Shown in pieces: positions 11,046 through 60,162 of a stretch of DNA of 64,000 nt (position 1 is its first letter; the number at the start of each line of letters is the position of its first letter). Made by a program: the position numbers and the translations under genes. The notes under the pieces were generated by a model. The model was not told the DNA's origin, ran no database searches, and saw only the letters and a list, made by a program, of their open reading frames with translations. This stretch comes from an uncultured Oscillospiraceae bacterium (GTDB taxonomy: Bacteria > Bacillota > Clostridia > Oscillospirales > Oscillospiraceae). The DNA lies in contig CAJOIU010000006.1 of NCBI GenBank assembly GCA_905234855.1, positions 1,893-65,892 of the forward strand. Reading direction: 5' to 3'.

Positions 11046-11054
11046 AAGAATATC

Positions 11055-11103: not shown

Positions 11104-11140
11104 TGTGAAAGAATTAATAATCATTAAGAGGAGGTTTCTT

Positions 11141-38271: not shown

Positions 38272-38379
38272 TTATGCGATCTTTCCGTATTTCTGTCCGG
38301 CGGCGACGAGCAGACCCAGCGCCGCGGTGGTGAGAGCGGCCGTAAGGCCGAGGCCGAGCATGACCATTTTGAGCTTCAT
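38272..38379 (-). CDS. 35-aa hydrophobic peptide (not in the ORF track)
   Basis: MKLKMVMLGLGLTAALTTAALGLLVAAGQKYGKIA. The ATG overlaps the kinase stop (ATGA), and GGAGG lies 7 nt upstream within the kinase 3' end. Confidence 0.35.
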   Translation of the reverse strand: MKLKMVMLGLGLTAALTTAALGLLVAAGQKYGKIA

Positions 38380-39281: not shown

Positions 39282-39338
39282 GCTATTATAATAGCCGTTT
39301 TCAAAATCTTTTGCAAGGCATATCCGGGAGGAAGAGAC

Positions 39339-40477: not shown

Positions 40478-40515
40478 CGGCGCCGCCTTTTTTCGTGCTT
40501 TCCGCCGCTTCGCCG

Positions 40516-43344: not shown

Positions 43345-43368
43345 CGACCACCCAAAAGGAGATACGAT

Positions 43369-44493: not shown

Positions 44494-44511
44494 GGAAAGG
44501 TTTCACCGACT

Positions 44512-46755
44512 ATGGCCATGTTGATCTTTTGGGGAGCCGCCTTGGCGGGACTGGTTCTCGCCGCGCTCCTGTGTATCGGCCGCCTCCGGCGGGGCGGCGG
44601 GGCGGCAGAGCTGCTGACGGACTTCGGGCTGGCCGTGCTTTCGGCGCTTGCCGTCGATTGGACGGTCGTATCCATGCTGGAGCGCCGGGTCGATCTCCGC
44701 CCGGAGACACTCTTTTCCCTGCTGGCGGAGGGGCAGCCCCAAGCAGGCAGGCTCGCCGCGCTGCTCATCGGCGTTCTCGGCTGTTTCGCGCTGTATCTGA
44801 CCCTGCGGGGCAAGGCACTGCGCCGCCGGATGAACGAAGCGTATCGGAAGGACGGCGCGCGCTGGCTGATTTCCGCCGCCGTGACGGGACTTTTTGTTCT
44901 CTGGGCGATGCGGATCACCGTCACGAGCTTCATGACGAACGACGATACCTTTGTCATGCGCGCCATCGCGGAGATTCCGGAAAACGGCCTGCGCTCCGCG
45001 GTGGGGACTTTCTCGAACATCCTGTTCTGCGGCTTGCTGTCGCTTTTCTACCGCATCGACCCGGAGGGCTGGTGGTATGCGGGCTACCATATCGCCGCCA
45101 TCGCCTTGTCTCTCACGGTCATCGGGCGCTGCGTGCTGCTGAAAACCGCCCGCCGCGGCTGGCCGGTGCTTTGCGGCGTTATGATCCACGCGCTGCTCTG
45201 CGCGGGTGTGTTCGCCTACTCGCTCTCGGAGCTGTCCTTCACCGTGACCCCCGCCATCGTCGGCTCCGCCGCCGTCGCGCTCATGCTCTGCCGGAGCGAT
45301 ATCGAGCGCCGCGCCGGACGGATCGCCTCGGATATCGCGGGCGTCGTCCTCATGCTGCTGTGCTACCTCCAGCGCTACGCCACCGGGCAATGCCTGCTGT
45401 GCTTCTGGGGTCTTGCCGCCGCCTATCAGGCGCTTCGGCTCCTGCTGCGGCGGGATGGGCATTGGAAGGGCGGCCTGCTTGCCATCTGCGCCTCGGTGCT
45501 GGCGGTGTTCGCGCTCATCAGCGTCTCCCGCTCCGTCATCCGGGAAAACTCCCTCTCCGCCGGTTCCGATTATTCCAACGCCGAATACTACCGCTCCATG
45601 GTCATGGACTACCTCATCGGCGGTCTATCGGATGAACAGCTTGAAGCGGCGGGACTGCCGCCGGAGCTGAGTCTGCTGCTGCGCAACTGGTATTTCATGG
45701 ACGAGCGCATCAATACCGACACCTTCCGCACCATCACGGAGATGTATGGCAGCGATACGCTTTCCGATGCGGCGGAAACGGCGAAATCGCTGCCGGACAG
45801 CCTGTCGGAGCTTTTCACTTCCATCGCCGAAAGCACGCGGATGCGCACGCGCGCGCTGATCGCCATGGCGCTGCTTCTGCTCTGCGCCGCCGCTTTTACG
45901 CGGTATGGGCGGAAATACTGGCCGGAATTTCTGTGCGCCGTCTGCACCATGGGCGGAGCGTTCCTGCTGTCGCTATATCTTGTGATGGACGGCCGCTTCC
46001 CGATCCGAGCCTTCCTCGTGATAGCGCTGCCTGCCGTCACCGCGCTGCTGCTGATGGCGCTCTCCGCGCCGGAGGAGCCGCGGCCGATGTCTCGGGGAGG
46101 ACGCTGTGCTCTTATCGGCGTATGCGCCGTGCTGGTGCTTTCGATCTGCGTTTTTGCCCGGCAGTCAGTGCGGAACGTGCCTTACAGCAAGGACTACGCT
46201 GACCGCGCCATGGTCTTTGAGAGCCAATGGGCCACGGAGGAATATGCCTTCGACCATCCCGATATCTTTTTTGTGACGAACTTCTTCGAGCAGAACCTCG
46301 ATCCCTTCCACGGCGGGACATATCCCGACAACATGTCCCTTTGGGGCGGCACGGGCGTCACCGCCTCGTCGAACCGCCGATATGCGGACGCCTTTTTCCG
46401 GGACGACGTTCGGTTTATGTGCGAAAACCCCGGCATGATCCTTTTCGTGCTGCAATATCTGACGCTGGACAACGGTCCCGTACAGGCCGCGATGGACGCG
46501 AGCCTCACCTCGAACATCTTCGTATACGATCTGACGCGGATCCGCCCCGCCGACGGCCGCGGCGGCTGGTATGAGCAGGACGGCATGACCTATTATTTCC
46601 GGGACGGGCAGGCGCTCACCGGCACGCAGGTCATCGACGGAGAGACCTACGAATTTGCCCCCGCCGGCGCCGCCGCCCGGATGAACGTCCTCCGTGAGGA
46701 GGATCGCACCCTCTACACCACGAATGCCTATGCGCTTACGGAGGCCGCGGAATGA
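44512..46755 (+). CDS. polytopic membrane protein with a C-terminal cell-wall-binding (choline-binding-type) repeat
   Basis: About 500 aa of TM-rich sequence, then a soluble domain ending in GWYEQDGMTYYFRDGQALTGTQVIDGETYEF (a CW_binding_1-like repeat). Confidence 0.7.
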   Translation: MAMLIFWGAALAGLVLAALLCIGRLRRGGGAAELLTDFGLAVLSALAVDWTVVSMLERRVDLRPETLFSLLAEGQPQAGRLAALLIGVLGCFALYLTLRGKALRRRMNEAYRKDGARWLISAAVTGLFVLWAMRITVTSFMTNDDTFVMRAIAEIPENGLRSAVGTFSNILFCGLLSLFYRIDPEGWWYAGYHIAAIALSLTVIGRCVLLKTARRGWPVLCGVMIHALLCAGVFAYSLSELSFTVTPAIVGSAAVALMLCRSDIERRAGRIASDIAGVVLMLLCYLQRYATGQCLLCFWGLAAAYQALRLLLRRDGHWKGGLLAICASVLAVFALISVSRSVIRENSLSAGSDYSNAEYYRSMVMDYLIGGLSDEQLEAAGLPPELSLLLRNWYFMDERINTDTFRTITEMYGSDTLSDAAETAKSLPDSLSELFTSIAESTRMRTRALIAMALLLLCAAAFTRYGRKYWPEFLCAVCTMGGAFLLSLYLVMDGRFPIRAFLVIALPAVTALLLMALSAPEEPRPMSRGGRCALIGVCAVLVLSICVFARQSVRNVPYSKDYADRAMVFESQWATEEYAFDHPDIFFVTNFFEQNLDPFHGGTYPDNMSLWGGTGVTASSNRRYADAFFRDDVRFMCENPGMILFVLQYLTLDNGPVQAAMDASLTSNIFVYDLTRIRPADGRGGWYEQDGMTYYFRDGQALTGTQVIDGETYEFAPAGAAARMNVLREEDRTLYTTNAYALTEAAE

Positions 46756-47870
46756 ACAAAAAAAAACTCGCCGTTATCGGCGCGAACGAGTTTCAGAACC
46801 CGCTGATCCTCAAGGCGCAGGAGCTGGGCTACGAGGTCCACGCCTTCGCTTGGGAGGCGGGCGCCGTCGGCGAGACCACCGCCGATGTGTTCCACCCCAT
46901 CAGCATCGTAGAGAAGGAGGCCATCTGGGAGGAATGCCGCGCCATCGGCATAGAAGCCTGCTGCTCCATCGGCTCCGACCTTGCCACGCATACCGTGAAC
47001 TATATCCAGCGGAAGCTGGGAAAGCCCTGCAATCCTGAGATCACGGACACCGTCGCCACCAATAAATTCGAGATGCGGCGTGCCTTTGAGGCCGCGGGCG
47101 TGGCCTGCCCGGGCTATCGATGCGTTTCCGCTGCTCCCTCCGAGGCGGAGCTGGCGGGCATGCGCTATCCCATGATCGTGAAGCCCACCGACCGCTCCGG
47201 CAGCCGCGGCATCTTCAAGGTATCGGATTACGCCGCGCTGTGCGCCGCCGTACCGCAGGCCATCGAAAGCTCCTTCGAAAAGCGCGCCGTCATCGAGGAA
47301 TATATTGACGGCCCCGAATATAGCTGCGAGGGCATATCCTTCGAGGGCAAGCATCACATTCTCGCGCTGACAAAAAAATTCACCACCGGCGCGCCCCATT
47401 TCATCGAGACGGGACACGAAGAGCCCTCCGACATCCCGCTCGAGGCGCAGGAGGCGGTGAAGGCGCAGATCCGCCGCGCCCTCGATGCGCTGCAGATCCG
47501 CTATGGCGCGAGCCACGCGGAGTTCAAGCTCACGCCGGAGGGCGAAGCGCGCATCATCGAGATCGGCGCGCGCATGGGCGGTGACTGCATCGGCTCCGAC
47601 CTTGTGTACCTCTCCACCGGGCTGGATTTCACCGCCATGGTGATCGACGCTGCCTGCGGCCGCGAGCCGGATCTCACGCCGAAGCGCGCCCCCGCCAAGG
47701 CTTCCATCCGCTTCATCTTTACCCGCGAGGATCGCGAGGCGCTCGACGCGCTCCGCCGCGCCGCGCCGGATACCATATGGCGCGCCGAATGCGACGAGGA
47801 CGCCCTCTCCGAGGCCGTGACCGACAGCTCCAACCGCCACGGTTACTGGATCACCGCGGAGCCGCTTTGA
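46752..47870 (+). CDS. ATP-grasp ligase (classical pre-ATP-grasp plus ATP-grasp, L-amino-acid-ligase/PurK-like)
   Basis: ATGA overlap with the upstream gene. KKLAVIGANEFQNPLI (Rossmann-like N domain), YPMIVKPTDRSGSRGI, EEYIDGPEYS and EIGARMGGD. Confidence 0.8.
   Translation: MNKKKLAVIGANEFQNPLILKAQELGYEVHAFAWEAGAVGETTADVFHPISIVEKEAIWEECRAIGIEACCSIGSDLATHTVNYIQRKLGKPCNPEITDTVATNKFEMRRAFEAAGVACPGYRCVSAAPSEAELAGMRYPMIVKPTDRSGSRGIFKVSDYAALCAAVPQAIESSFEKRAVIEEYIDGPEYSCEGISFEGKHHILALTKKFTTGAPHFIETGHEEPSDIPLEAQEAVKAQIRRALDALQIRYGASHAEFKLTPEGEARIIEIGARMGGDCIGSDLVYLSTGLDFTAMVIDAACGREPDLTPKRAPAKASIRFIFTREDREALDALRRAAPDTIWRAECDEDALSEAVTDSSNRHGYWITAEPL
46758..46766 (+). repeat. A9 homopolymer at codons 3-5 of the first ATP-grasp gene
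   Basis: ATG AAC AAA AAA AAA CTC, a run of nine A in a GC-rich genome. Confidence 0.9.
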
Positions 47871-47914
47871 ACCGAAAATCCTGTATTTTAAACATAAAGA
47901 AAGGATCGAACATT

Positions 47915-49102
47915 ATGAAAAAGCTCATGGTACTGGGCGCCGGCTTCCCGCAGGCGCAGCTCATAAACGCCGCGAAGGAGATGGGCTATCGCACCGTCGT
48001 CTGCAGCATCCCCGGGGATTATCCCGGCTTCTCGTGCGCCGACGAGGTCGCCTATGCCGATATCTCCAGCCCCGAGGAGGTGCTGCAGGCGGCGAAGGAT
48101 TTCCACGCGGACGGCATCGCCACCTGCTGCCTCGACACGGGCGTGCGCGCCCTCGGCTATGCCTGCGAGAAGCTGGGCTATCCCGGACTGAGCGAGACCG
48201 CCGCCATCCGCAGCGCTGATAAGTGGCAGATGAAAAACGCCTTTATGGACGCGGGCGTCAACACCGCCCGCTGCTATCAGGTAACGAGCCGGGAGAGCCT
48301 CGGGGAAGCCCTTGGCAAGCTCGTGCTCCCGGTCGTCGTGAAGGCCGTGGATCTTCAGGGCAGCAAGGGCGTGTATATCTGCCGCACGGCGGAGGAGGCC
48401 TTCGCCGCCTTCGACGAGGCCATGCGCCTGACCCGTCGGGATTACTGCATCGTGGAGGAATTTATCGAGGGCAACGAGCTCGGCGCGCAGGCCTTCGTAT
48501 ACAAGGGCGAGATCGTGTTTGTCCTGCCCCACGGCGATAACACCTATATGAGCAAGACAGCCGTTCCCATCGGCCATTATGTTCCCATCGACGCGAGCGA
48601 GAGCGTTATCGAAGCTGCCAAGGAGCAGTCCGAGAAGGCCATCCGTGCCCTCGGTCTCGACAACTGCGCGGTGAACATCGATCTCATCGAGCGGGATGGG
48701 AAGATCTACGTCATCGAGCTGACCGGCCGCGCGGGCGCCACCGCCTTGGTGGAGCTGGTGAGCATCTACTACGGCATGGACTATTTCAAGATGATCGCCG
48801 CTATGGCCATGGGGGACGATCCGCTCGCCATCTTTAACGCCCGGGACGGCAAGGCCGTGGCAAACGCCTCCCGGATGCTTCTCTCAGAGAAGTCCGGCGT
48901 GGTGAAGCGCATCGAAAACACCGTCCCCATGGACGAGCATGTGTATGATCTCACCCTCATCATCAAGGAGGGCGACACCATCAACAAATTCACGAACGCC
49001 AAGGACCGTATCGGGCAGGTCATCGTCTCGGGCAAGACGGCGCAGGAGTGCCTCGACCGCATCGACGAGATCCTTACCCAAATCAAGATCGAGGTTGAAT
49101 AA
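47915..49102 (+). CDS. ATP-grasp ligase, paralogue of 46752-47870
   Basis: RBS AAAGAAAGGA. KKLMVLGAGFPQAQLI, LPVVVKAVDLQGSKGV, EEFIEGNELG and ELTGRAGAT. Confidence 0.8.
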   Translation: MKKLMVLGAGFPQAQLINAAKEMGYRTVVCSIPGDYPGFSCADEVAYADISSPEEVLQAAKDFHADGIATCCLDTGVRALGYACEKLGYPGLSETAAIRSADKWQMKNAFMDAGVNTARCYQVTSRESLGEALGKLVLPVVVKAVDLQGSKGVYICRTAEEAFAAFDEAMRLTRRDYCIVEEFIEGNELGAQAFVYKGEIVFVLPHGDNTYMSKTAVPIGHYVPIDASESVIEAAKEQSEKAIRALGLDNCAVNIDLIERDGKIYVIELTGRAGATALVELVSIYYGMDYFKMIAAMAMGDDPLAIFNARDGKAVANASRMLLSEKSGVVKRIENTVPMDEHVYDLTLIIKEGDTINKFTNAKDRIGQVIVSGKTAQECLDRIDEILTQIKIEVE

Positions 49103-49107
49103 CTGCT

Positions 49108-50070
49108 ATGATTACCGTTTCCGTAGCCATCCCCTGCTATAAATCCGCTCTGACGATCCCCTCGGTCGTCAACGAGATCCGAAACACGCTCAGCAAGCGG
49201 GAGGGGTATGATTATCAGATCATTCTGGTGAACGATTACCCGGACGACAGCACCTTCGACGTGATCGCCTCTCTCTGCAGCGCCGATCCGAAGATCATCG
49301 GCGTGAACCTCTCGCGCAACTTCGGCCAAACCACGGCAAAAATGGCCGCGCTGCCCTATGTCACAGGGGACGTGCTGGTGTATATGGACGACGACGGACA
49401 GCATCCCGCCGACCAGATCTTCAAGCTGGTGGATAAGGTAATGGAGGGCAGCGATCTCGTCTATGCCCGGTTCCCCCATAAAAAGCACTCGCTTTTCAAG
49501 CGCTTCACGAGCTGGATGAACTCAAAGATGCTGGAGCTGAACGGCTCCAAGCCGAAGGGCATCTCCATTTCCAGCTATCTCGCGCTCAACCGGGTCTCGG
49601 TAGAGGCGCTGAAAAAATACAAAAGCCCCTTCCCGTCCATGGGGGGCTATCTCTCCCATGTCGTGCGCAGGGTCGCCAATGTGGATCTGGAGCACCGCGA
49701 CCGGCTGGCCGGCAAATCGAACTATACGCTGAAGAAGCTTCTGAACCTGTGGCTGACGGGCTTTACGAATTTCTCCACGGTGCCGCTGCGCTTCGCTTCG
49801 TATCTCGGAGGCGGATGCGCGCTGGCTGGCTTCGTCTACACCATCGTGGTCATCGTCAAAAAGCTCATCAATCCCTCCGTCCCCGTCGGCTACACCACCA
49901 GCATCGCTCTCCAGCTCATCATCGGCGGCGTCATCATGTTCATCCTCGGCCTGTGCGGGGAATACATCGGCCGCATCTATATGACCGTGAGCGATATGCC
50001 CCAGTATGAGATCCGCGAAACGATCAACGCGCCGGAGAAAGAGAAGGAGACAAACCGTTATGAGCAGTAA
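49108..50070 (+). CDS. GT2 polyprenyl-phosphate glycosyltransferase (GtrB/ArnC/CsbB-like)
   Basis: VAIPCYKS, LVNDYPDDST, SRNFGQ, DDDGQHP, then FSTVPLR and two C-terminal TM helices ending in GEYIGRIY. This is the same architecture as GtrB. Confidence 0.85.
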   Translation: MITVSVAIPCYKSALTIPSVVNEIRNTLSKREGYDYQIILVNDYPDDSTFDVIASLCSADPKIIGVNLSRNFGQTTAKMAALPYVTGDVLVYMDDDGQHPADQIFKLVDKVMEGSDLVYARFPHKKHSLFKRFTSWMNSKMLELNGSKPKGISISSYLALNRVSVEALKKYKSPFPSMGGYLSHVVRRVANVDLEHRDRLAGKSNYTLKKLLNLWLTGFTNFSTVPLRFASYLGGGCALAGFVYTIVVIVKKLINPSVPVGYTTSIALQLIIGGVIMFILGLCGEYIGRIYMTVSDMPQYEIRETINAPEKEKETNRYEQ

Positions 50071-51133
50071 GCTGCGCCCGCTGTATGACGGGATCTATAT
50101 GGGGATCGACGTAGGTCTGCTGGCCATAAACGCCGCCCGCGGCATGCGGAAGCGGGCCCGCGGAGCCGAACCCGCGCCCGGGCTGGACGCCGAATACAAA
50201 ACCTCGATCCGCCCCTATTGGCGGCAGTTCCGCGTCGGTGTGCCGAAAAAATACTGGTTCCGCTTCTGGGGCGGCGACCCCCGCTTTATCCCCGGCAACC
50301 TCTGGTATCGCCGGATCGTTCCCCATTTCAATACCGTCCTGTTCGCACAGGCGCTGCAGGACAAATGCATGCATAACGTCTATGTACCGGAGATCCGCCG
50401 CCCGGTCACCGTGGTCAAAAACGTCGCCGGGCATTTCTGCGCGGACGATCTCTCCCCGCTGACCGAGGAGGAGGCCATCGCCCGCTGCCATGACCGGGGG
50501 CGGGTGCTGATAAAGCCCTCTGTCGGCAGCGGCGAGGGACACAATATCCGTTTCTTCGACACGGACAGCGTCACGGACGAGGAGCTGCGCTCGCTCTTCC
50601 GGCAGTATAAGCGCAATTTCATCGTACAGGAGAAGCTGGCGCAGCATCCGGTGCTCGCGGCGCTCAACCCCAGCTCGCTCAATACCATCCGCATCATGAC
50701 CTTCCTGTTCCGCGGCGAGGTGCATATCCTCTCCGCGATCCTGCGGGTCGGCGGCGGCAAGAGCGAGGTGGACAATTTCGCGCAGGGCGGCTTCCAGCTC
50801 ACGATCCTGCCGGACGGACGCCTCGACCCGCATCCCGCCAGCAACGGCATGGCGCATATGACAGCGGAGGAGAAGGCCGAGCTCGTCCGCCGGTTCGAGA
50901 ACGTGCAGATCCCCTCCTTCGACCGGGTGATCGCCGCCGTGCGGGACGCCGCGCTGAAAATGCCCCATTTCGCCATCCTCGGCTGGGACATCGGCGTCGA
51001 CCCGGAGGGGGAGCCGACGCTCATTGAGTATAACGTCATCCCCGGCCAGAACCAAGGCACCTGCGGCCCCACCTTCGGCGAGCTGACGGACGCGGTGCTG
51101 GAAGACGTATTCGGAAGGAGAACCCGTTCATGA
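50060..51133 (+). CDS. sugar-transfer-associated / TupA-like ATP-grasp amidoligase (paralogue 1)
   Basis: PYWRQFRVG...DPRFIP N-terminal module. LIKPSVGSGEGHNI, QHPVLAALNPSSLNTIRI, LRVGGGKSEVDNFAQGG and GWDIGVDPEGEPTLIEYN. Confidence 0.75.
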   Translation: MSSKLRPLYDGIYMGIDVGLLAINAARGMRKRARGAEPAPGLDAEYKTSIRPYWRQFRVGVPKKYWFRFWGGDPRFIPGNLWYRRIVPHFNTVLFAQALQDKCMHNVYVPEIRRPVTVVKNVAGHFCADDLSPLTEEEAIARCHDRGRVLIKPSVGSGEGHNIRFFDTDSVTDEELRSLFRQYKRNFIVQEKLAQHPVLAALNPSSLNTIRIMTFLFRGEVHILSAILRVGGGKSEVDNFAQGGFQLTILPDGRLDPHPASNGMAHMTAEEKAELVRRFENVQIPSFDRVIAAVRDAALKMPHFAILGWDIGVDPEGEPTLIEYNVIPGQNQGTCGPTFGELTDAVLEDVFGRRTRS

Positions 51134-52224
51134 ACTATGCCGCAGGCCGCCGGATCTATGATCGCGTATACTACCGCCTCGAAAGCTGGGTGAAGGCCGC
51201 TGCTCTGAACGCCTCGGCTCGCCGCGCTCTGCGGGGCTTCCGGCCGGACAAGGTCTTCTGGGACAATTTCCGGCAGAACGTCCGCCCATATTGGGCGCAG
51301 TTCGGCGTGCGCGTCCGCCCGCTCTGGTTCAAGCGCTATTATCAGATGCACGGCGGCCTCGACCCCCGGCTCATCCCGGACGATATCCATCTGCGGAAGG
51401 TCATCCCGTTTTTTGACAAGGATATGTATATCCGCCCGCTGGTGGACAAAAACCTGCACGCGCTGATGTTCCCCGGCGTCAAACGGCCGGAGACCGTCTT
51501 CAAGCATATCGACGGGCGGTATACCGAGGACGACTTCACGTCCCTGTCCCGGGAGGAAGCCCTCAGCCGCTGCCTTGCGCCCGGCCGATTTATCGTAAAA
51601 CCCACGGTGGACACGGGGCAGGGCAAGGGCATTCGCTTTTTCTCCGGCGAGGACGGCCGCGAGGCGGTGGAGACGCTGCTCGCCTCCTTTGACAGCAGTG
51701 ACTATATCGTGCAGAAGGTCGTGCGTCAGCATCCTGCCATGGCGCATTTTAACCCCGGCTGCCTCAATACCCTGCGGGTCAACACCATGTATTTCGAGGG
51801 CAAGGCGTACATCCTCACCTCCATCCTCCGCATCGGCGCGGGCAGCAGCGAGGTGGACAACGTCTCGCAGGGCGGCTATCAGGTCACCGTGCATCCGGCG
51901 GACGGAACACTGGACAGCACGGCCTATACCCACTACGCGGGCATAGAGAAATATGTGGACGAGACCGACCGGGGCATCCGCTTTGAGGGGCTGACGATCC
52001 CCTGCTGGGACAAGATCAGCGCCGCTGCGCTGCGTCTGTGCGAATATATGCCCCATCTGAAGTACATCGGCTGGGACTTCGCGGTGGACGAAACGGGCGA
52101 CGTGGTGCTGGTAGAGTTCAACTGCCAGCTCGGCCAGAATCAAGAGACCTGCGGCCCCACCTTGGGGGATATGACAGAGCCGGTGCTGCGGGCGATCTAC
52201 GGAAAGAAAGAGGACAAGGCATGA
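51130..52224 (+). CDS. sugar-transfer-associated / TupA-like ATP-grasp amidoligase (paralogue 2)
   Basis: ATGA overlap. PYWAQFGVR...DPRLIP, IVKPTVDTGQGKGI, QHPAMAHFNPGCLNTLRV, LRIGAGSSEVDNVSQGG and GWDFAVDETGDVVLVEFN. Confidence 0.75.
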   Translation: MNYAAGRRIYDRVYYRLESWVKAAALNASARRALRGFRPDKVFWDNFRQNVRPYWAQFGVRVRPLWFKRYYQMHGGLDPRLIPDDIHLRKVIPFFDKDMYIRPLVDKNLHALMFPGVKRPETVFKHIDGRYTEDDFTSLSREEALSRCLAPGRFIVKPTVDTGQGKGIRFFSGEDGREAVETLLASFDSSDYIVQKVVRQHPAMAHFNPGCLNTLRVNTMYFEGKAYILTSILRIGAGSSEVDNVSQGGYQVTVHPADGTLDSTAYTHYAGIEKYVDETDRGIRFEGLTIPCWDKISAAALRLCEYMPHLKYIGWDFAVDETGDVVLVEFNCQLGQNQETCGPTLGDMTEPVLRAIYGKKEDKA

Positions 52225-53198
52225 CGCCCATCGAATATATCGGCGAGATACGCAAGGTGCTTTCGGAGCTGTCCGAGACGACAGGCTATCCTGTGTCCCG
52301 GCTGTTCCGCTCCTTCCTGCGGTGCTATATCACCAAGCGCGCGGAGGTCAACGAGTTCCGCAGCCTGCGCTTATACGAGCGTTCCTCGCTGCTGGTGCGG
52401 GAATACCTGCTGCAGCATGAGATGGAGGCCTACAGCGATCAGCTCAACATCGACATGACGGAGGAGGATTACCTCGAGATCTCCGATAAACACCTCTTCA
52501 ATCGGAACTTCGCGCCCTTCGTCCATCGCCGCTGGCTGTATGCGCCGGAATGCACCGCGGAGGAGCTGGCTGCGTTCCTGAAAAGCACCGACGCATTTCT
52601 CGTGAAGGAATGCCGGGGGATGCAGGGACACGGTATCCAGCGCTTCGAAAGCAAGGATATCGATCCGACCGCCTTTTGGGAGGAATACCGCAGCCAAAGC
52701 GTCCTGCTGGAGACCTTCATCCGGCAGCATCCCGCCATGGCGGCGCTGAACCCCACGTCCGTCAATACGATCCGGCTGATCGCGGCCCGCAAAAACGACG
52801 ACATCTGTCTCATCGGCGGCGGTCTGCGGGTCGGCGGCGCGGGACAGTTCGTGGACAACTATCACAACGGCGGCGTGGCCTATCCCCTCGATCTGGAAAC
52901 AGGCATCGTCACCGGCCGCGGCTATGACCACGAGGGACGACCCGTACTGCGCCACCCCACCACCGGGCATATCATGCCGGGCTTCGCGGTGCCGCATTGG
53001 GCGCAGGTATTGGAAACCGTGCATCGCGCCGCGACGATCCTTCCCCATATCGGCTATGTGGGCTGGGATATCGCCGTCACGGAGGACGGCGCGGAGCTCA
53101 TCGAGGGAAACGTGAACTACCCCGGCAACAACGTGATCCAGCTCGACGGCCCCGGAGCTCTCAAGCGTCTGACGGATTTCATCCAAAAGACATCATGA
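52221..53198 (+). CDS. sugar-transfer-associated ATP-grasp amidoligase (paralogue 3, different N-terminal module)
   Basis: ATGA overlap. LVKECRGMQGHGI, QHPAMAALNPTSVNTIRL, LRVGGAGQFVDNYHNGG and GWDIAVTEDGAELIEGN. Confidence 0.75.
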   Translation: MTPIEYIGEIRKVLSELSETTGYPVSRLFRSFLRCYITKRAEVNEFRSLRLYERSSLLVREYLLQHEMEAYSDQLNIDMTEEDYLEISDKHLFNRNFAPFVHRRWLYAPECTAEELAAFLKSTDAFLVKECRGMQGHGIQRFESKDIDPTAFWEEYRSQSVLLETFIRQHPAMAALNPTSVNTIRLIAARKNDDICLIGGGLRVGGAGQFVDNYHNGGVAYPLDLETGIVTGRGYDHEGRPVLRHPTTGHIMPGFAVPHWAQVLETVHRAATILPHIGYVGWDIAVTEDGAELIEGNVNYPGNNVIQLDGPGALKRLTDFIQKTS

Positions 53199-53216
53199 AC
53201 TACAGGAGACTGCGCC

Positions 53217-54350
53217 ATGCGAACGAAACGTCAACAGGCATACGATAAGTTCATATACTGCTTTCCCTTCGATGTGTACAATTTCTTCGCCGACCTGCGC
53301 AACCTGCGCCGCACGATGAAATACCGGGCGGGGAAGGAATTCCGGGAAAACTACCGCAAGGTAGTCGTACCCTATTGGCGGCAGTTCGGCGTCCGGCCGC
53401 CGCGGCTTTGGTGCAAGCATATGTACCACCTGACGGGCAGCCTCGATCCGCGCTATATCCCGAACCCGATCCATTACCGCAATATCATTACCTACTTCGA
53501 CGATCCGTCCTATGAGCATGTGATGGAGGACAAGAACCTCTACAGCGTGCTGTTCCCCTCCGTCAAGCGCCCGGAAACGATCTGCAAGCATTTCGCCACG
53601 ACCATCTACGGCAACGCCCCGGATCACTATACCGACGACGATTTTACGCCGCTCTCCCGGGAGGAAGCCGTTCGGCGCTGCCTTGCCGGCGGAAAGTTCA
53701 TCATAAAGCCCACCTGCGACACGGGCGGCGGCTCCGATGTGAAGAGCTTCTCCTCGGAGGACGGGGCGGAAGCGATCGAAGCGCTTTTCGACTCCTACCG
53801 CGGCGTGGATTTTATCATCCAGCGCTTTGTGAAGCAGCATGCTGATCTTGCCCGGCTCAACGATTCGAGCCTCAACACCATGCGCATCGTCACGATGGTT
53901 TTCCATGAGAAGCCGTACCTTCTCTCCGCGATCCTGCGGGTCGGCCATCAGGGAAGCCCGGTGGACAATTATTCCTCCGGCGGGTATCAATGCACCATCC
54001 TGCCCGACGGGACCCTTGACCGCCTCGCCGCCACCAAGGTCTCCGGCGTTGACGAATATGTGGAGGAAAACGAAAACGGCCTCCGCTTTGAAGGCATCCG
54101 CGTCCCCAGCTGGGACGCTGCCCAGAAGCTGGTGATGGAGCTGGCGGTGAAGCTGCCGCACCTCAAGTACATCGGCTGGGATATCGCGGTGGACGAAGAC
54201 GGCGATCTCGTTCTCATCGAATTCAACTGCCATATCGACCAGAACCAAGAGACCTGCGGCCCCACCTTCGGCGATATGACCGACGAGGTTCTGGCGGACG
54301 TGTTCCGCGACCGGATCGAAAAACGCAAAGGCAAGAAAGCGCGCGGATAA
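53217..54350 (+). CDS. sugar-transfer-associated / TupA-like ATP-grasp amidoligase (paralogue 4)
   Basis: PYWRQFGVR...DPRYIP, IIKPTCDTGGGSDV, QHADLARLNDSSLNTMRI, LRVGHQGSPVDNYSSGG and GWDIAVDEDGDLVLIEFN. Confidence 0.75.
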   Translation: MRTKRQQAYDKFIYCFPFDVYNFFADLRNLRRTMKYRAGKEFRENYRKVVVPYWRQFGVRPPRLWCKHMYHLTGSLDPRYIPNPIHYRNIITYFDDPSYEHVMEDKNLYSVLFPSVKRPETICKHFATTIYGNAPDHYTDDDFTPLSREEAVRRCLAGGKFIIKPTCDTGGGSDVKSFSSEDGAEAIEALFDSYRGVDFIIQRFVKQHADLARLNDSSLNTMRIVTMVFHEKPYLLSAILRVGHQGSPVDNYSSGGYQCTILPDGTLDRLAATKVSGVDEYVEENENGLRFEGIRVPSWDAAQKLVMELAVKLPHLKYIGWDIAVDEDGDLVLIEFNCHIDQNQETCGPTFGDMTDEVLADVFRDRIEKRKGKKARG

Positions 54351-54372
54351 AGGCCGCAGGAGCGTCCTCTCT

Positions 54373-55941
54373 ATGACAAGAACACAGAACTCCTTTTTCA
54401 ACTACATCACGAGCCTGCTCTATATGCTGATCGTCGTGGGGCTGAATTTCGTCACCCGCTCAGTATTCACGCGCCAGCTAGGGCTGAGTTTTCTCGGCAT
54501 CGAGGGATATTTTACGAACATCCTCTCCATGCTCTCGCTGGCGGATCTCGGCTTCGGCTCCGCCATCGTTTTCAAGCTTTATAAGCCCATCGAGGAAAAC
54601 GACCGGCCGCGGATTCTGGTGCTTTTGAAGCTCTATCGGAAGGCGTATCTCATCATCGGCTCGGTCATCTTCGGCCTCGGTCTTTGCCTCATCCCGCTGC
54701 TGCCGAAGCTTGTTAAGGACTATTACGTTCTCTCGGAGCTCGGTCTCAACGGCGTCTTCGTCTATCTGCTCTATCTGTTCAACACCGCCGGCTCCTACTG
54801 GGTCTTCGCCTATAAATCCGCCTTCGTGCAGGCAAATCAGAAGACCTATATCCTCACGGTCATCGGCTATGCCATCACCATCGCAAACAGCGTCTGCCAG
54901 ATGCTGGCGCTCATTTTCTTCCGAAATTTCATCGTCTACCTGTGCGTACAGATTTTCTTTGCTCTGCTGCAGAACGTCGTCTGGGCGATCGTATGCGACA
55001 GGAAATATCCCTTCGTAAACGACAAAACCGAGGCGAACATCTCCCGCGAGGAGCTGAAGGAGTTTTTCAAGGACTGCTCGGCGCTGTTTCTCTATTCGGC
55101 CTGCGCCGTCATCATCGGCGGGTCGGACAACATCGTCCTGTCCGCGCTGCTCGGCCTGAACGCTGTCGGCATCTACTACGGCTATTCCTCCATCCGGCAG
55201 GCGGTCCGCTCGATCCTATATACCTTCCTCACCTCCATACAGGCGTCTCTCGGCAGCCTGCACTCCACCGGCAACCTCGAATGGTCGCGGCTGGGCTTCC
55301 GCGTCGTGAATTTTGCCGCCGTATGGATCTACAGCATCGGCGCCATCGGCGTCGCCGTGCTGGCGGACGAGTTTCTCCCCCTCTGGCTGGGCGACGCCTC
55401 CTATGTCGTCACAAGCTGGAATTATAACGGTACTGTCATTCCCACGCCGGTGGCCGTGCTGGTGGGCATCGAGATCTATATCATCGGCCAGCAGAACACC
55501 TGCGGCATCTTCCGCAACGCCATGGGGCTTTTCCAGCAGATGAAGCGCCGCCCCATCGCCAGCATCCTCATAAACGTCCTGCTCTCGATCCTCCTCGTGC
55601 CGTATCTCGGCATCGCGGGCTGCGTCGTCAGCACCATCGTAGCGGGACTTACCACGAACCTCATTTTCGATCCTCTCATTATTTATAAATACGCCCTCAA
55701 AACGTCGCCTAAGGCCTATTATCTGCGCAACCTCCTGTATAAGGCCGTCGCGCTGGCCGCCGGCGCCGCGGCATGGCTGATCTGCGGCAGGATCTCGCTG
55801 GCCGGCGTGGTCGGTCTTCTGCTCCGGGGGTGCGTATGTGTCGCCGTCCCCAGCGTCTTCTTTGCCCTTTGCTTCTGCCGCACCACGGAATTTCGCTTTC
55901 TGCTGGATTCCGTCAAAAACCTGATCCCCCGCCGGACGTAA
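54373..55941 (+). CDS. MOP-superfamily (Wzx/PST-type) lipid-linked glycan flippase
   Basis: 522 aa and polytopic. The N-terminal NYITSLLYMLIVVGLNFVTRSVFTRQLG...LADLGFGSAIV is typical of polysaccharide-transport-family flippases. Confidence 0.7.
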   Translation: MTRTQNSFFNYITSLLYMLIVVGLNFVTRSVFTRQLGLSFLGIEGYFTNILSMLSLADLGFGSAIVFKLYKPIEENDRPRILVLLKLYRKAYLIIGSVIFGLGLCLIPLLPKLVKDYYVLSELGLNGVFVYLLYLFNTAGSYWVFAYKSAFVQANQKTYILTVIGYAITIANSVCQMLALIFFRNFIVYLCVQIFFALLQNVVWAIVCDRKYPFVNDKTEANISREELKEFFKDCSALFLYSACAVIIGGSDNIVLSALLGLNAVGIYYGYSSIRQAVRSILYTFLTSIQASLGSLHSTGNLEWSRLGFRVVNFAAVWIYSIGAIGVAVLADEFLPLWLGDASYVVTSWNYNGTVIPTPVAVLVGIEIYIIGQQNTCGIFRNAMGLFQQMKRRPIASILINVLLSILLVPYLGIAGCVVSTIVAGLTTNLIFDPLIIYKYALKTSPKAYYLRNLLYKAVALAAGAAAWLICGRISLAGVVGLLLRGCVCVAVPSVFFALCFCRTTEFRFLLDSVKNLIPRRT

Positions 55942-55961
55942 CAGAAAGGAAGAGATCCGTC

Positions 55962-57047
55962 ATGGCCTTCGAGCTATCCACCTTTGCCTATCATGCCGTC
56001 GATCAATACCGCTTGGCTTATCACAACCGCGACCTGCTGCGCTGGGAAAAGAAGGTCTGCCGCGCCCATCCCGAATGGGCGCCGCTGACCGCGGCGGAGC
56101 TCGCCGAGATCCGGCCCCGGGATCGCTGGGGCTGCAAGCTTTTCAAAAACATGGCCGGTACCACCGAGAATACCCGCTGCTTCATTACAGAAGCGCCGTT
56201 TCGCACCCTCATCCTTCCGATGCTCAATCCCCTCAACCACCGCAGCAACAGCGACGGCTTCGGCACCCTGTTTTCGGATAAGAATTACAGCGAGCTGTTC
56301 ATGCCCGGCATGACGTTTCCGAAAACGCTGCTCTACCGCATCCACGGGGAATACTACGACGCAAAGCGGCGGCACATCCCCGCGGCGGCAGCGCTTGACC
56401 AGCTTCGCGGTCATGACCGGCTCGTCTTCAAGCATTCGACGGACACCGGCCACGGCACCGGCGTAGTGCCCGTGCAGGCGGAGGATTTCGCTGCGCAGCT
56501 CGATTACTCCCAGAACTATCTCGTGCAGGAGCTGATCCGCCAGCATGAATCGCTTGCGTATTTCAATCCCTCCTCGGTGAATGCCATCCGTATCAACACG
56601 CTGTTTTGGCGCGGGCATGTGTATGTCCTCGGCGGCATCCTGCGCATCGGTGCGCCCGGCGCCTTCTGCGACCATGAGAGCATCGGCAAAAACGCCTATC
56701 TCTCCATCGCCCTCGCGGAGGACGGCACGATCCTGCCCCATGCCGTGGACGTGGACAACTACTACGCTTATGACACCTGCCGCGGCATCCCCATCCAAGG
56801 CCGCATCCCCGCGTATGAGGAGATGAAGCGCAGCGCCGCCGCCGCCCATGAGAATTATCCCGGCTACGGGCTGATCGCGTGGGATTTCACCGTCGGCGAG
56901 GACGGCCGTCCCATCTGCGTCGAATTCAACACCGTCTATCCCGGCCCGGTGGGCACCCAATGCGCTCTCGGCCCGGTATTCGCCCAAAAGAGCGTCGAGG
57001 GCGTGCCGCTCTTCGATGAGCTGATGGCCGCGGTCAAAAAGAAATAA
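55962..57047 (+). CDS. sugar-transfer-associated ATP-grasp amidoligase (paralogue 5, divergent)
   Basis: LVFKHSTDTGHGTGV, QHESLAYFNPSSVNAIRI, LRIGAPGAF and AWDFTVGEDGRPICVEFN. It lacks the VDN..GG motif of the other four. Confidence 0.7.
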   Translation: MAFELSTFAYHAVDQYRLAYHNRDLLRWEKKVCRAHPEWAPLTAAELAEIRPRDRWGCKLFKNMAGTTENTRCFITEAPFRTLILPMLNPLNHRSNSDGFGTLFSDKNYSELFMPGMTFPKTLLYRIHGEYYDAKRRHIPAAAALDQLRGHDRLVFKHSTDTGHGTGVVPVQAEDFAAQLDYSQNYLVQELIRQHESLAYFNPSSVNAIRINTLFWRGHVYVLGGILRIGAPGAFCDHESIGKNAYLSIALAEDGTILPHAVDVDNYYAYDTCRGIPIQGRIPAYEEMKRSAAAAHENYPGYGLIAWDFTVGEDGRPICVEFNTVYPGPVGTQCALGPVFAQKSVEGVPLFDELMAAVKKK

Positions 57048-57051
57048 TGCC

Positions 57052-57080
57052 GATGCCCCCGATCGCGGATCGGGGGCATC
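57052..57080 (+). terminator. stem-loop after the last gene of the locus
   Basis: gatgcccccgatc-gcg-gatcgggggcatc, a 13-bp stem with no clear T-tract. Confidence 0.5.
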
Positions 57081-57139: not shown

Positions 57140-59299
57140 TTACGAGGCGCCGCCGGAGGCCTCGCCGGAGCCGCCCATGTCCACATTGGCGACAAGGGAG
57201 GACATATCGGCGGGAACGACGCCCTTGGCCGCCGCGTCGGCGATCAGCGCCTCGCCGACCTGCATGGCCGCCACGACGTCCGCCCCGGCGGGAACGACCA
57301 CGACATTCTCATAGGTGCCGGCGGCAAGCGCGAGCTTCTGCCCGTTCTGATACACGTCGCCGTTCACGACGCTCGTCCCGTCCACGGTGAGGGAGGCGAG
57401 GTAGCTCAGGCCGGTGACGTTCCATGTGGAATTTGTCAGCGACAGGCTCACGGGGTTATTCACCGTGGGCGCAGCGAAGCTCAGAAGGCGGCCGATGGAG
57501 AGGTAGTCGTAGGTTCCCTCGCGGCCGTAGGAATCGACGGTGATGGTGCCGGTGAGCATGGTGCCGTCGTCGGTGCAATGGGCGGCATAGGCCGAGCTGA
57601 CTGCGCCGGTGAGGGAGGCGTCTGTCAGATTCACCGCGATGGAATCGTTTTTGAACTTCGTCTGGCTGCCGGTCTGGCTGCCGACGCTGTTGAAGACATT
57701 GCCGGAGAGGGCGGAATCGGTGATATTCAGCGTAGTGACGCCGCCGGCGCCGTTGCCCTCGGCGGTCAGATACTCGTCATAGGTGCCGTAGGGGACGGTG
57801 AAGGTGGTAGCGCCGGGGCCGCCGCCGAGGTCGTCGGAGTCGATGACCTCAAGAAGACTGCCGCCCCAAGGACTCTCCGCCGTAAGATCCACGGTCACAT
57901 CCCGCAGGTTGATGGTCTCGCCGTTGCCGCCCTTCGATTTGATCATGAGGAAGGTATCGGCCACGTCAAAGTCGGACTCGGAGATATCCAGCAGGGTGCT
58001 GGAGCCGGTCTGATGGCTCATGAAGCCGATGCGGTCGCTCCAGCCATAGAAGCGGCCGGCGTCGGAGGCGCCGATGGTAACCTTGCCTCCGGTGATGATG
58101 ATGAGATAATCCGGGGCGAACCAGCGTCCGCCGTAAGCGGAATCGGTAAAGCCGTCGCAGTAGGCGATGTATCCGGAATCCTTGCCGACGCGGCCGTAGC
58201 TGACGCCGTATTCCACGCCGTTCACGGTATAGGTCTCGTCATAAGTGGAGCCCGCCTGCACCGGCTCGACATAGCCGAGGACGGCCACGGTATCGGTCGC
58301 CACCAGCGTGCCGCTGCCGGAGTCGGTGGAGAGGACTGCCCAGCCGTTCGAGGAAATGAGGGAGTCCTTAAAGGTGATGGCAGCCTGTCCGCAGTCGAGC
58401 GTGGCGCGGATATTGCCGGTGAGACCCAGCGCGAAGGGAACCTGTTGCATCATCGGGGTGGCGAAGTTATCATCCGGGCTGTAGGCAACGAGATCCTCGT
58501 CGTTATAGGTCTGGACGACGGTATTGATAACGTCCACCGCCGCGCTGCCGCCGGACCAGATCGCGGAGCGGAGAGCGCCGCCGGAGGTGAACACGCTGTC
58601 GGAAATGGTGACGAGAGCCTCGCCGCTGGCGATGACCGCCGCGCCTTGGCCGGTGAAATCGTCGCCGCCCTTGCCGAAGGCGGTGAACTCGGAATCGGTG
58701 ATATCCACCTTGCCGCCGTTCACATACACGGCGGAGAAGTAATCGCCCTCGGAATCATAGGTCATGCCGGAAACGCTGCTGTCGGTGATGGCGGCGCCAC
58801 CCTGCGCAGCCTCGACGGAGTTGGCAGCCTGATAGCCGTTCTCGTCATAATACGCCGCCGCAGTGTAATAGAAGGAGCCGATCAGGCTGCCCGCATCGTC
58901 GCCGAACTTGGAGTTGCCGGCGTTGGCGGAGGCGCCCTTCGCCGCGAGGGTCAGAACGACGTCGCCGGTGTAGGTGACGTTTTCGGCGTTATACAGATCG
59001 ACCTGCACGCCGTCCACGGTGAGGATGGCCACATAGGCGTCGCTGTCCACGTCGATCTCGCCGCCGTCATAGACGATCTTCGAGACATTGCAGAACTGGG
59101 TCGCGTCCACATAGTCCGCGAAGGCGTCCGCGATCTCCACGGAACGGATGGTGATGGAATCGCCCGCCCAATGCGTATCGTCCACTTGGGCGAAGCTGCC
59201 GCCGGAGGCTCCGCTGGGATCGCCGCTGGCAAAAACGCCGAGGGAGAGCACGAAGCAGAGCGCCATCACAATGGCCAGAGTTCTTGTGAGCTTCTTCAT
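57140..59299 (-). CDS. secreted beta-helix-like surface protein (paralogue 3)
   Basis: Start at MKKLTRTLAIVMALCFVLSLGVFA behind AAAGGAAAGGA. Shares NGWAVLSTD and STWNVTGLS modules with 6968-9061 and 11141-12895. Confidence 0.8.
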   Translation of the reverse strand: MKKLTRTLAIVMALCFVLSLGVFASGDPSGASGGSFAQVDDTHWAGDSITIRSVEIADAFADYVDATQFCNVSKIVYDGGEIDVDSDAYVAILTVDGVQVDLYNAENVTYTGDVVLTLAAKGASANAGNSKFGDDAGSLIGSFYYTAAAYYDENGYQAANSVEAAQGGAAITDSSVSGMTYDSEGDYFSAVYVNGGKVDITDSEFTAFGKGGDDFTGQGAAVIASGEALVTISDSVFTSGGALRSAIWSGGSAAVDVINTVVQTYNDEDLVAYSPDDNFATPMMQQVPFALGLTGNIRATLDCGQAAITFKDSLISSNGWAVLSTDSGSGTLVATDTVAVLGYVEPVQAGSTYDETYTVNGVEYGVSYGRVGKDSGYIAYCDGFTDSAYGGRWFAPDYLIIITGGKVTIGASDAGRFYGWSDRIGFMSHQTGSSTLLDISESDFDVADTFLMIKSKGGNGETINLRDVTVDLTAESPWGGSLLEVIDSDDLGGGPGATTFTVPYGTYDEYLTAEGNGAGGVTTLNITDSALSGNVFNSVGSQTGSQTKFKNDSIAVNLTDASLTGAVSSAYAAHCTDDGTMLTGTITVDSYGREGTYDYLSIGRLLSFAAPTVNNPVSLSLTNSTWNVTGLSYLASLTVDGTSVVNGDVYQNGQKLALAAGTYENVVVVPAGADVVAAMQVGEALIADAAAKGVVPADMSSLVANVDMGGSGEASGGAS

Positions 59300-59340
59300 G
59301 GTGTCCTTTCCTTTCAGATGATGTATTTTTAGGGATTTGC

Positions 59341-60162
59341 TTACTCGTACAGCGCCAGAAACTCCTCGAGGCACAGGTCATGCTCCATGATATACCGGGC
59401 GGCCGTCCCCACATAGCGGAGATGCCATGGCTCGTATTCCACGCCGGTAATATCGGTTTTGTCCTCCGGGTAGCGGATGATGAAGCCGTAATCCGCGCAA
59501 TGCTCCTCCAGCCACAGCATGAGGCCGGTCCCGCCGATCCATGGCTCCATTTCCTGCTGGGGGGATTCGAGGATATCCGCCGCCAGACCGAGCTGATGCT
59601 CGCTGCCGCCGGGATAATTCACAGCGATCCGCGTGGCGGCCTCGGCCTCCTCGAAGGTCATGCCCTCCTTCTGGTAATCCGCCACATGGTTCCAATAGAT
59701 GGAATACTGCACCTCATACGAGCGGTAACAGGAGCAGACATACACCTCATAGCCCGCCGCGCGGGCGTCTGCGATCAGCATCAGAAGCGGCGCAGCGGCG
59801 CGGCTGTCGAACCGCTCGCCCCGCTCGATATCCAGCAGCGCCGGCTCAAAATCCGGCTCCAGAAACGGCCCGTCGCTGCGGACTAGACGCAGGTTCCAGT
59901 CCGAGGTATCCACGTCCGGCAGCGCGGGATCCCGGGTCGGGGCGGGGGCGGCGGGCGCCCGAGTCTCCTCCGGCGCATCGTCCTCCTCCGGCGCGGCCGC
60001 GAGCAGCGTTCCCGTCTCCTGCCGCGCCATTTCCTCCCGGATATCCGCCCGCTGCGCCGTGAGCTTGACCACCGTGGCGATCCCCGCGGCCAGCAAGACG
60101 ACCAGCAGCAGTCGGAGCCATGCGCGGCGCTTGATTTTTTTTCGATCCTTCAGCTTTGGCAA
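59341..60162 (-). CDS. VanY-type (M15B) D-alanyl-D-alanine carboxypeptidase, membrane-anchored
   Basis: N-terminal basic region plus a TM helix. SCYRSYEVQ, GGSEHQLGLAADI and YEPWHLRYVG form the H-x6-D / H zinc site of the VanY family. Confidence 0.8.
   Translation of the reverse strand: MPKLKDRKKIKRRAWLRLLLVVLLAAGIATVVKLTAQRADIREEMARQETGTLLAAAPEEDDAPEETRAPAAPAPTRDPALPDVDTSDWNLRLVRSDGPFLEPDFEPALLDIERGERFDSRAAAPLLMLIADARAAGYEVYVCSCYRSYEVQYSIYWNHVADYQKEGMTFEEAEAATRIAVNYPGGSEHQLGLAADILESPQQEMEPWIGGTGLMLWLEEHCADYGFIIRYPEDKTDITGVEYEPWHLRYVGTAARYIMEHDLCLEEFLALYE

Follow-up and report, generated by a model that had tools for sequence, protein, structure and literature searches.

This analysis concerns five neighbouring genes for ATP-grasp ligases of the family ATPgrasp_ST (PF14397, hereafter ST), found in 64,000 nucleotides (nt) of DNA from an uncultured Oscillospiraceae bacterium (assembly GCA_905234855.1, contig CAJOIU010000006.1, positions 1,893 to 65,892 of the forward strand). 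This whole stretch is referred to as the window. The five ligases are designated A1 to A5. They form part of a block of 12 genes at 40603-57047, in which every gene is on the + strand and neighbours either overlap or are at most 44 nt apart. The block is a terminator-bounded operon, and contains in total seven ATP-grasp ligases (five ST and two classical) and two GT-C transferases. Its features are as follows.

40466-40487, + strand: terminator-like hairpin with a 9-bp stem (7 GC pairs) followed by a run of T; it ends the upstream chromate-transporter genes and is the 5′ boundary of the operon.
40603-43344, + strand: YfhO-family GT-C glycosyltransferase, 913 amino acids (aa), polytopic (PF09586, 160.8 bits; weak PgfM1/PgfM2 matches).
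43369-44493, + strand: WecE-type dTDP-4-amino-4,6-dideoxyhexose aminotransferase (NF008687 and TIGR02379, both above cut-off).
44512-46755, + strand: predicted second GT-C-fold membrane protein, 747 aa, with C-terminal choline/glucan-binding-like β repeats (by predicted structure; no Pfam family).
46752-47870, + strand: classical ATP-grasp ligase, ATP-grasp_4 or Ddl-like (PF13535, 81 bits).
47915-49102, + strand: ATP-grasp of the L-amino-acid-ligase type (PF18603 LAL_C2, GARS_A, ATP-grasp_4).
49108-50070, + strand: GtrB/ArnC/PgfS-like GT2 polyprenyl-phosphate sugar transferase (PF00535, 85.8 bits) with two C-terminal transmembrane (TM) helices.
50060-51133, + strand: A1, ST ligase of clade OG-A (PF14397, 1.2e-32), overlapping the stop of the GT2 gene by 11 nt.
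51130-52224, + strand: A2, ST ligase of clade OG-B (PF14397, 8.4e-37; 97 homologues), overlapping A1 by 4 nt.
52221-53198, + strand: A3, short (325 aa) ST ligase of clade OG-C with an acidic N-terminal region (PF14397, 1.2e-44; 345 homologues).
53217-54350, + strand: A4, ST ligase and second OG-B member, its clade taken from the tree (PF14397, 1.7e-32).
54373-55941, + strand: Wzx/MOP-type flippase-like membrane protein, 522 aa, polytopic (PF01943 Polysacc_synt, 41.2 bits).
55962-57047, + strand: A5, divergent ST ligase of clade OG-E, 3′ of the flippase gene (PF14397, 2.6e-18).
57052-57080, strand not assigned: GC-rich hairpin of 13 bp, 5 nt past the stop codon of A5; 3′ boundary of the operon.

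Within the ST array, adjacent genes overlap by 4-11 nt or are separated by 18-22 nt, and each of the five starts is preceded by a Shine-Dalgarno-like sequence. The proteins A1 to A5 are 357, 364, 325, 377 and 361 aa long, and have the same lengths in independent calls on identical metagenome contigs. An earlier note on this DNA had listed five ATPgrasp_ST paralogues at these positions, one of them set apart from the others by a flippase gene. The open reading frames (ORFs) are confirmed, and the PF01943 gene does lie between A4 and A5. The inventory of the locus was incomplete, in that it missed the two further ATP-grasp ligases, the WecE-type aminotransferase that identifies the sugar, and the two GT-C transferases. 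The probable task of the operon is to decorate a lipid-carried amino sugar with amino acids or a short peptide, before export of the sugar to the cell wall.

All five proteins score above the PF14397 gathering threshold of 31.4 bits (113.7, 127.3, 153.0, 113.2 and 66.6 bits for A1 to A5), and the family assignment thus holds in hidden Markov model (HMM) searches. Judged by these scores, five matches within 7 kb cannot be attributed to chance. The only other family matched is the related PF14398, under its cut-off. The description of the five as TupA-like has to be dropped: none of A1-A5 matches PF14305 (TupA) at E ≤ 0.01, which rules out membership of that family. A true PF14305 protein is encoded beside ST genes in L012, one of the related loci (L004 and L007-L012) that were compared with the window. 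Membership of the RimK-like NCBIfam families TIGR02291 and TIGR00768 also failed, the best score being 45.2 bits for A3 with TIGR02291 (cut-off 314.2), while A2 reached 19.3 bits and A1, A4 and A5 had no match. No Mur_ligase Pfam match was found among the five, whose fold is that of the ATP-grasp enzymes.

PF14397, the ‘sugar-transfer associated ATP-grasp’ family, was defined computationally by Iyer, Abhiman, Burroughs & Aravind in 2009 (cited as reference 39 in PMC13419641). The family is large: a phmmer search with A5 against 1.84 billion cluster representatives found 3,253 members (50%-identity clusters) at E ≤ 1e-3. The context implied by the family name holds here and fits the five, with GT2, Wzx-like, GT-C and aminotransferase genes close to ST genes in the window, in L004 and in L007-L012. 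No TM segments or signal peptides are predicted in A1-A5, which indicates that the five ligases are cytoplasmic.

The structure of A2 was predicted with AlphaFold2 from an alignment of 71 sequences, giving a confident model (predicted local distance difference test, pLDDT, 94.1; predicted TM-score, pTM, 0.91) in which residues 1-113 are all-helical and the remainder is an ATP-grasp core. A Foldseek search of the PDB with this model gave more than 360 matches at E ≤ 1e-3, led by DdlA/DdlB, biotin carboxylase, PsnB and ArgX, and including LysX and L-amino-acid ligases. The TM-scores are about 0.4, because the N-terminal domain of A2 has no counterpart in the PDB matches. The other four ST proteins align to A2 across the whole core. 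Sequence searches of the PDB, made with A3, with a profile of the five proteins and with a profile of the 71 sequences, found just marginal matches to Ddl and tubulin-tyrosine ligase at the G(W/F)D...IE.N motif; the family is thus without a solved close relative.

An alignment of the five proteins contains 25 invariant columns, among which are the (L/I)(V/I)K-strand Lys, QH, N..S.N..R, LR.G, D..G, WD and E.N. Residues K152, R229, D310, E323 and N325, numbered as in A1, do not vary among the five or in 71 homologues, and are kept in every clade consensus. In A2 the spacing from the Asp to the E.N motif (D316, E329, N331) is 13 residues, the same as that between the Mg ligands D257, E270 and N272 of E. 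coli DdlB. The core motifs described earlier are present with small deviations, namely C instead of S in N(P/D).S.N of A2, AWD rather than GWD in A5, and one residue fewer between WD and E.N in A3. Loss of ATP or Mg ligands had been named as something that would speak against a set of working enzymes. The ATP/Mg motifs are kept in all five, and none of the proteins looks inactive.

The N-terminal PYW.QF...DPR.IP and C-terminal QNQ(E/G)TCGPT(F/L)G(D/E) motifs are confined to A1, A2 and A4 among the five, in agreement with the earlier note. Its statement that A3 and A5 have different N-termini is correct as regards the PYW.QF module, which both lack, but from about residue 85 A5 has a pre-ATP-grasp segment (DKN...P.T) in common with the A1/A2/A4 group. 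In their first 115 residues, A1, A2 and A4 are strongly basic and rich in aromatic residues (pI 9.7-10.5), whereas the same region is acidic in A3 and in both classical ATP-grasp enzymes. The basic domains are a hint, rather than proof, that A1, A2 and A4 work at the membrane surface. A5 carries CDHESIGK at the position of VDN..GG, a motif already noted as missing from it. The phmmer search with A5 found about 14 full-length members of its clade, OG-E; GAPGxFCDH is kept in 11 of the 14, and the GG is missing throughout the clade. This conservation makes the altered motif of A5 a clade trait under selection and not a sign of decay, and A5 was therefore rejected as a pseudoenzyme.

The identity to A1 is 37% for A2, 39% for A4, 23% for A3 and 24% for A5, and A2 and A4 are 49% identical to each other. 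The best DNA similarity between copies is 81% over 140 nt. The duplications are therefore old, as had been proposed, and recent duplication or gene conversion is ruled out. An identity matrix and a neighbour-joining tree were made from the five proteins and 18 ST proteins of L004, L007, L008 and L009. Where the earlier note saw two architectural subtypes, the tree places the five in four ancient clades, with identities between clades of 16-43%. The clades, with their members in the window, position and identity, are listed here.

OG-A: A1; always directly 3′ of the GT2 gene, with an overlap of 4-11 nt (L004, L007, L008, L010); 55-59% to A1, 66-72% among orthologues.
OG-B: A2 and A4; after OG-A; 47-60%.
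OG-C: A3 (short form); between two OG-B copies; 49-55%.
OG-D: no member in the window; beside LicD genes; 73%.
OG-E: A5; always after the flippase, with orthologues in L004 and L008; 45% to A5, 67% between the two orthologues.

With each ST gene denoted by the letter of its clade, the gene orders are as follows.

Window: A-B-C-B′-flippase-E.
L004: A-B-C-B′-LicD-D-flippase-E.
L008: A-B-C-B′-C′-LicD-LicD-D-flippase-E.
L007: A-AlaDh-B-flippase.
L010: A-LicD-opine dehydrogenase-B-distant ST-flippase.

The order A-B-C-B′-(C′)-(LicD-D)-flippase-E is thus colinear across loci with 2, 3, 5, 6 and 7 ST copies, which indicates that OG-A and OG-B form the core and that the other clades are add-ons. The clades keep their positions in loci that are just 45-73% identical. 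When 184 database homologues were assigned to clades, the residues specific to each clade proved to be at least 85% conserved, and lie beside the catalytic motifs and after E.N. After the VDN position they are VDNvs.GGYQ (OG-B), VDNFHHGGtAYPlDL (OG-C) and CDH (OG-E), and after E.N they are gQNQetCGPTFGD (OG-B), NiNYPGntiIQLD-GPG (OG-C) and Pgi...Qya.GPiFa (OG-E). In Ddl, the incoming amine substrate binds at a site lined by the segment that follows E.N. The positional orthologues and the clade-specific residues beside the catalytic motifs argue for distinct functions rather than redundancy, which is what had been suggested from the divergence.

Genes for alanine-dehydrogenase-like or octopine/opine-dehydrogenase proteins occur between ST genes in several of the related loci (L007:9008-9964, L009:11096-12055, L010:12094-13173 and L012:8890-9981), a recurrence which suggests that some forms of the decoration contain amino acids of the opine (N-carboxyalkyl) type. 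No such gene is present in the window. LicD phosphocholine-transferase genes lie inside the ST arrays of L004 (11123-12052), L008 (14278-16212) and L010 (11105-12028), and in L004 and L008 they are paired with the extra clade OG-D. A LicC/choline-kinase fusion and an SSF transporter are encoded downstream in L004. Choline-binding proteins, together with LicD, LicC and choline-kinase genes, are found in the related loci.

The sugar is indicated by the aminotransferase, which scores 597.2 bits with NF008687 (WecE; cut-off 375) and 595.4 bits with TIGR02379 (cut-off 434.85), scores that do not distinguish the galacto from the gluco configuration. In L008 an RmlB equivalog (TIGR01181, 494 bits, cut-off 365) lies directly 5′ of the WecE-type orthologue, which identifies the sugar as a 4-amino-4,6-dideoxyhexose derived from dTDP-glucose. 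Profile scans of the window proteins found no RmlB, whose gene must therefore lie elsewhere in the genome. The top NCBIfam matches of the GT2 are PgfS (5e-45) and ArnC (8e-44), both under their equivalog cut-offs, and its TM segments are at residues 231-255 and 260-288. The flippase-like protein has a 60% identical orthologue in L010. No small flippase gene of the GtrA/GtcA type was found in the operon, the sole candidate being the 522-aa Polysacc_synt (Wzx/MOP) protein.

The ligase at 46752-47870 has Ddl, PylC, BacD and DdaF-like NCBIfam matches, all below cut-off. It is 75% identical to its orthologue in L010, and the ligase at 47915-49102 is 81% identical to its own. The classical ligases are thus much more conserved between the window and L010 than the ST paralogues are (50-58%).

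The YfhO-family gene is conserved at the head of L007, L008 and L010. The polytopic 747-aa protein was modelled with AlphaFold2 from 41 homologues (pLDDT 90.9, pTM 0.91). The seven best Foldseek matches of the model in the PDB are all GT-C enzymes, namely ArnT, PglB (two entries), yeast Stt3 (two), AglB and Pmt4. On the strength of this model, it is a second GT-C transferase that belongs to no Pfam or NCBIfam family. An invariant D144 lies in an SFMTNDD loop, at the place where GT-C enzymes bear their catalytic acidic motif. The C-terminal β repeats match clostridial CROP/choline-binding repeats, with weak HMM matches to Choline_bind_3 and glucan repeats. There are about 60 homologues with 40-54% identity, sometimes two on one contig. 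In related loci the corresponding slot holds a membrane protein of 447-457 aa with no Pfam family (L004:1338-2681, L007:2435-3808, L008:3472-4827, L010:5330-6673); homology of the 747-aa protein to those of L004, L007 and L008 was rejected after negative BLASTP and hhalign comparisons.

The general layout is that of three-component glycosylation, in which a GT2 of the GtrB/CsbB type loads polyprenyl phosphate, a flippase carries the product across the membrane, and teichoic acids then receive it from a GT-C enzyme such as YfhO (PMC5836110, PMC8035078). In common with CsbB/GtlA-GtcA-YfhO/GtlB, PgfS/PgfM1/PgfM2 and ArnB/ArnC/ArnT, the operon has a GT2 with C-terminal TM segments, a flippase and an extracytoplasmic GT-C enzyme, the last of which occurs twice here (YfhO by HMM, the 747-aa protein by fold). 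The parallel with ArnB/ArnC/ArnT extends to the combination of aminotransferase, GT2 and ArnT-like GT-C. The operon differs from these systems in its Wzx/MOP flippase, which takes the place of GtcA or ArnEF, in having two GT-C enzymes, and in its seven ATP-grasp ligases. The insertion of seven ligases between the gene for loading and that for flipping implies a cargo that is much bulkier and bears a peptide.

Pyl of the B. cereus UDP-Yelosamine pathway is the likely model for the two classical ATP-grasp ligases encoded next to the WecE-type gene. Pyl is an ATP-grasp enzyme that acylates the 4-amino group of a UDP-4-amino-4,6-dideoxy sugar with 2-oxoglutarate (cited in PMC11626204, and as reference 100 in PMC8987622); it differs in that its reaction, a single step, takes a UDP-sugar and 2-oxoglutarate. 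For the chemistry of the ST ligases, the best experimental model is the C-terminal domain of Cj1438 from Campylobacter jejuni (Cj1438C), a TupA-like ATP-grasp that amidates the C6 carboxylate of capsular glucuronic acid with small amines (PMC11800379). In both cases an ATP-grasp enzyme encoded in a surface-glycan locus would form an amide on a glycan carboxylate. Cj1438C is however a PF14305 protein, a family that none of the five matches, and is a single domain fused to a GT2 outside any multi-ligase array.

A functional likeness to MurC-F is possible: these too are consecutive ATP-dependent ligases, which add one residue each, via an acyl-phosphate, to a sugar-linked peptide. The Mur ligases are a fold and family unrelated to ATP-grasp, and for the ST ligases we infer the sequential action. 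Compared with PF14397 in general, the present array stands out as a conserved colinear array of four clades (5 copies; relatives 2-7) tied to lipid-carrier/GT-C export and not to an ordinary polysaccharide locus.

We lean towards the view that the products of the five genes are active ATP-dependent carboxylate-amine ligases with diverged functions, and that the 12-gene operon makes and exports a decorated amino sugar in the following steps. The WecE-type enzyme would transaminate dTDP-4-keto-6-deoxyglucose to dTDP-Fuc4N or dTDP-Qui4N. One or both of the classical ATP-grasp ligases may then acylate the 4-amino group with an amino or dicarboxylic acid, for which B. cereus Pyl provides a precedent, and the GtrB/ArnC-like GT2 would load the sugar on polyprenyl phosphate. 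The ST ligases, working on the cytoplasmic side of the membrane, would convert a free carboxylate to an acyl phosphate and add more amino acids or amines, to give a short peptide or branched decoration. A1, which is coupled to the GT2, would be the first of them to act. The Wzx-like protein would flip the product, and a large MOP-type protein rather than GtcA would suit a bulky cargo. Finally, YfhO and the ArnT/PglB-like GT-C may transfer the product to a wall polymer, probably a teichoic acid (possibly choline-bearing) or another envelope glycan. Choline-bearing teichoic acids are pointed to by the LicD, LicC/choline-kinase and choline-binding genes in the relatives, and by the choline-binding-like repeats on the 747-aa GT-C. 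The idea that each enzyme adds one residue in turn is compatible with the nested architectures of 2, 3, 5, 6 and 7 copies.

A number of points weigh against this pathway. In the literature searched we found no characterised member of PF14397 and no paper naming the family, so that the substrates are guesses, and a full-text search for papers linking ATP-grasp with YfhO or with amide-linked polysaccharide gave nothing. GT2s of the GtrB type normally take UDP-sugars, whereas the aminotransferase here is of the dTDP type. The operon encodes one cytoplasmic glycosyltransferase and no uronic-acid gene, and it has to be assumed that the carboxylates activated by the ST ligases derive from added amino or dicarboxylic acids. 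A5 is without the N..GG motif typical of RimK/GshB-like enzymes, and its chemistry may differ. Genes for RmlB, an acetyltransferase and an opine dehydrogenase, which related loci have, are also missing from the window.

The same ligases could instead work in parallel. Each would amidate its own carboxylate or use its own amine, either on a shared sugar-amino acid unit or on other glycans of the envelope, so that branches or heterogeneous single residues are formed and no linear peptide. Such an arrangement would be in keeping with the single ST genes in ordinary Wzx/Wzy polysaccharide loci (L011), with the mixing of ST genes with TupA, pyruvyl-transferase and opine-dehydrogenase genes (L012, L010), and with Cj1438C, which puts one small amine on a polymer carboxylate (PMC11800379). 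However, a locus with one sugar-forming pathway and one cytoplasmic glycosyltransferase offers few carboxylates unless amino acids are added first, and the nested colinear growth of the array from 2 to 7 copies suggests stepwise elaboration. We consider parallel decoration rather unlikely, though it is the strongest of the alternatives.

Processive synthesis is decidedly less probable. Here the sugar would receive a homopolymer tail, for example poly-Glu, from at least one ST ligase working in the way of RimK or of the teichuronopeptide system, and the other copies would govern initiation or capping. The match of A3 to the RimK-related TIGR02291, below cut-off, fits this idea, as do the resemblance of VDN..GG to the N..GG of RimK, GshB and LysX and the PGA_cap (CapA) gene among the ST genes of L009. 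A homopolymer would nevertheless need no five to seven diverged paralogues with clade-specific pockets, and the window is without machinery of the CapB/CapC type.

A role in protein modification is very improbable; the ST ligases would then attach amino acids to a protein, in the manner of RimK and tubulin-tyrosine ligase, and simply happen to lie beside glycosylation genes. The C-terminal ATP-grasp motif has a weak match to tubulin-tyrosine ligase, and CfmP, a predicted TupA-like ATP-grasp, is needed for a modification of FimA fimbriae that is independent of surface polysaccharides (PMC13419641); yet translational coupling to the GT2 and the flippase is conserved in every related locus, and the operon encodes no conserved candidate substrate protein. 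That just one or two copies work, the others being spare or pseudoenzymes, is hardly credible: VDN..GG is missing in A5 and A2 and A4 share a clade, but the catalytic motifs are all intact, the GAPGxFCDH of A5 is conserved in its clade, and in loci of 45-73% identity the clades keep both their positions and, to at least 85%, their own residues.

If the ST ligases do extend a decoration on the lipid carrier, a bolder version of the pathway can be put forward tentatively, more as a possibility than as an expectation. In gut Oscillospiraceae there would then be a second ‘stem-peptide’ line, independent of peptidoglycan, in which a non-ribosomal oligopeptide of defined make-up is assembled by as many as nine ATP-grasp ligases on a 4-amino-6-deoxyhexose linked to polyprenyl phosphate. 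A Wzx-type protein would flip this glycopeptide, and GT-C enzymes would graft it onto wall polymers. The number (2 to 7) and clades of the ST ligases would set a strain-specific length and sequence, and so constitute a modular surface-antigen code.

The operon is flanked by ordinary chromosomal genes of anaerobic Firmicutes (Rnf complex, FeFe hydrogenase, nucleoside ABC transporter, ChrA, VanY, CobW). Homologues come from gut metagenomes and metagenome-assembled genomes (MAGs) of uncultured Oscillospiraceae. A scan of genome contigs with A1 found only one locus, in an uncultured Oscillospiraceae MAG (58% identity), and a search of sequencing runs found a single gut-metagenome run, with 6% of the words present. 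The cluster adjoins rpmB or hprK-murB-rapZ-whiA in L004, L007 and L010, but has chrA on one side and vanY on the other in the window, so that the chromosomal site of the operon differs between lineages. Upstream, at 38739-40477 (+), are two tandem half-size chromate-transporter (ChrA) genes. The long ORF called for the upstream one runs into a gene for a PfkB-family kinase that is read in the other direction (38376-39518, −), which puts the start of the first ChrA gene probably at about 39.3-39.4 kb. Convergent with the operon is a gene at 57140-59374 (−) for a 744-aa protein that is probably secreted, having a single hydrophobic segment at its N-terminus, and that matches no Pfam or NCBIfam family; after it comes a gene for a VanY-type D,D-carboxypeptidase (59341-60162). 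Further away, the long ORFs 5553-6911 (−), 6968-9061 (−), 10484-12895 (+) and 19142-20224 (−) have coding-like GC content at third codon positions and no Pfam match at E ≤ 1e-5, and a neighbouring ORF, 9189-11045, contains a Cthe_2159 carbohydrate-binding domain.

The decoration of surface glycans with amino acids by ATP-grasp amidoligases was predicted in 2009 and has been demonstrated for other families. What is new here is the conserved colinear multi-clade ST array, its insertion in a lipid-carrier/GT-C export operon with a dTDP-4-amino-sugar pathway, and the second GT-C transferase without a family. With one sugar pathway, one lipid-loading glycosyltransferase, one flippase and seven ligases, the operon is an unusually clean setting for PF14397 chemistry. 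If the ligases act in series, it would parallel the Mur ligase pathway with ATP-grasp enzymes, a glycopeptide being built on a lipid carrier. If true, this would explain surface variation in abundant uncultured gut Clostridia, and would bear on immune recognition, phage receptors and the anchoring of choline-binding proteins.

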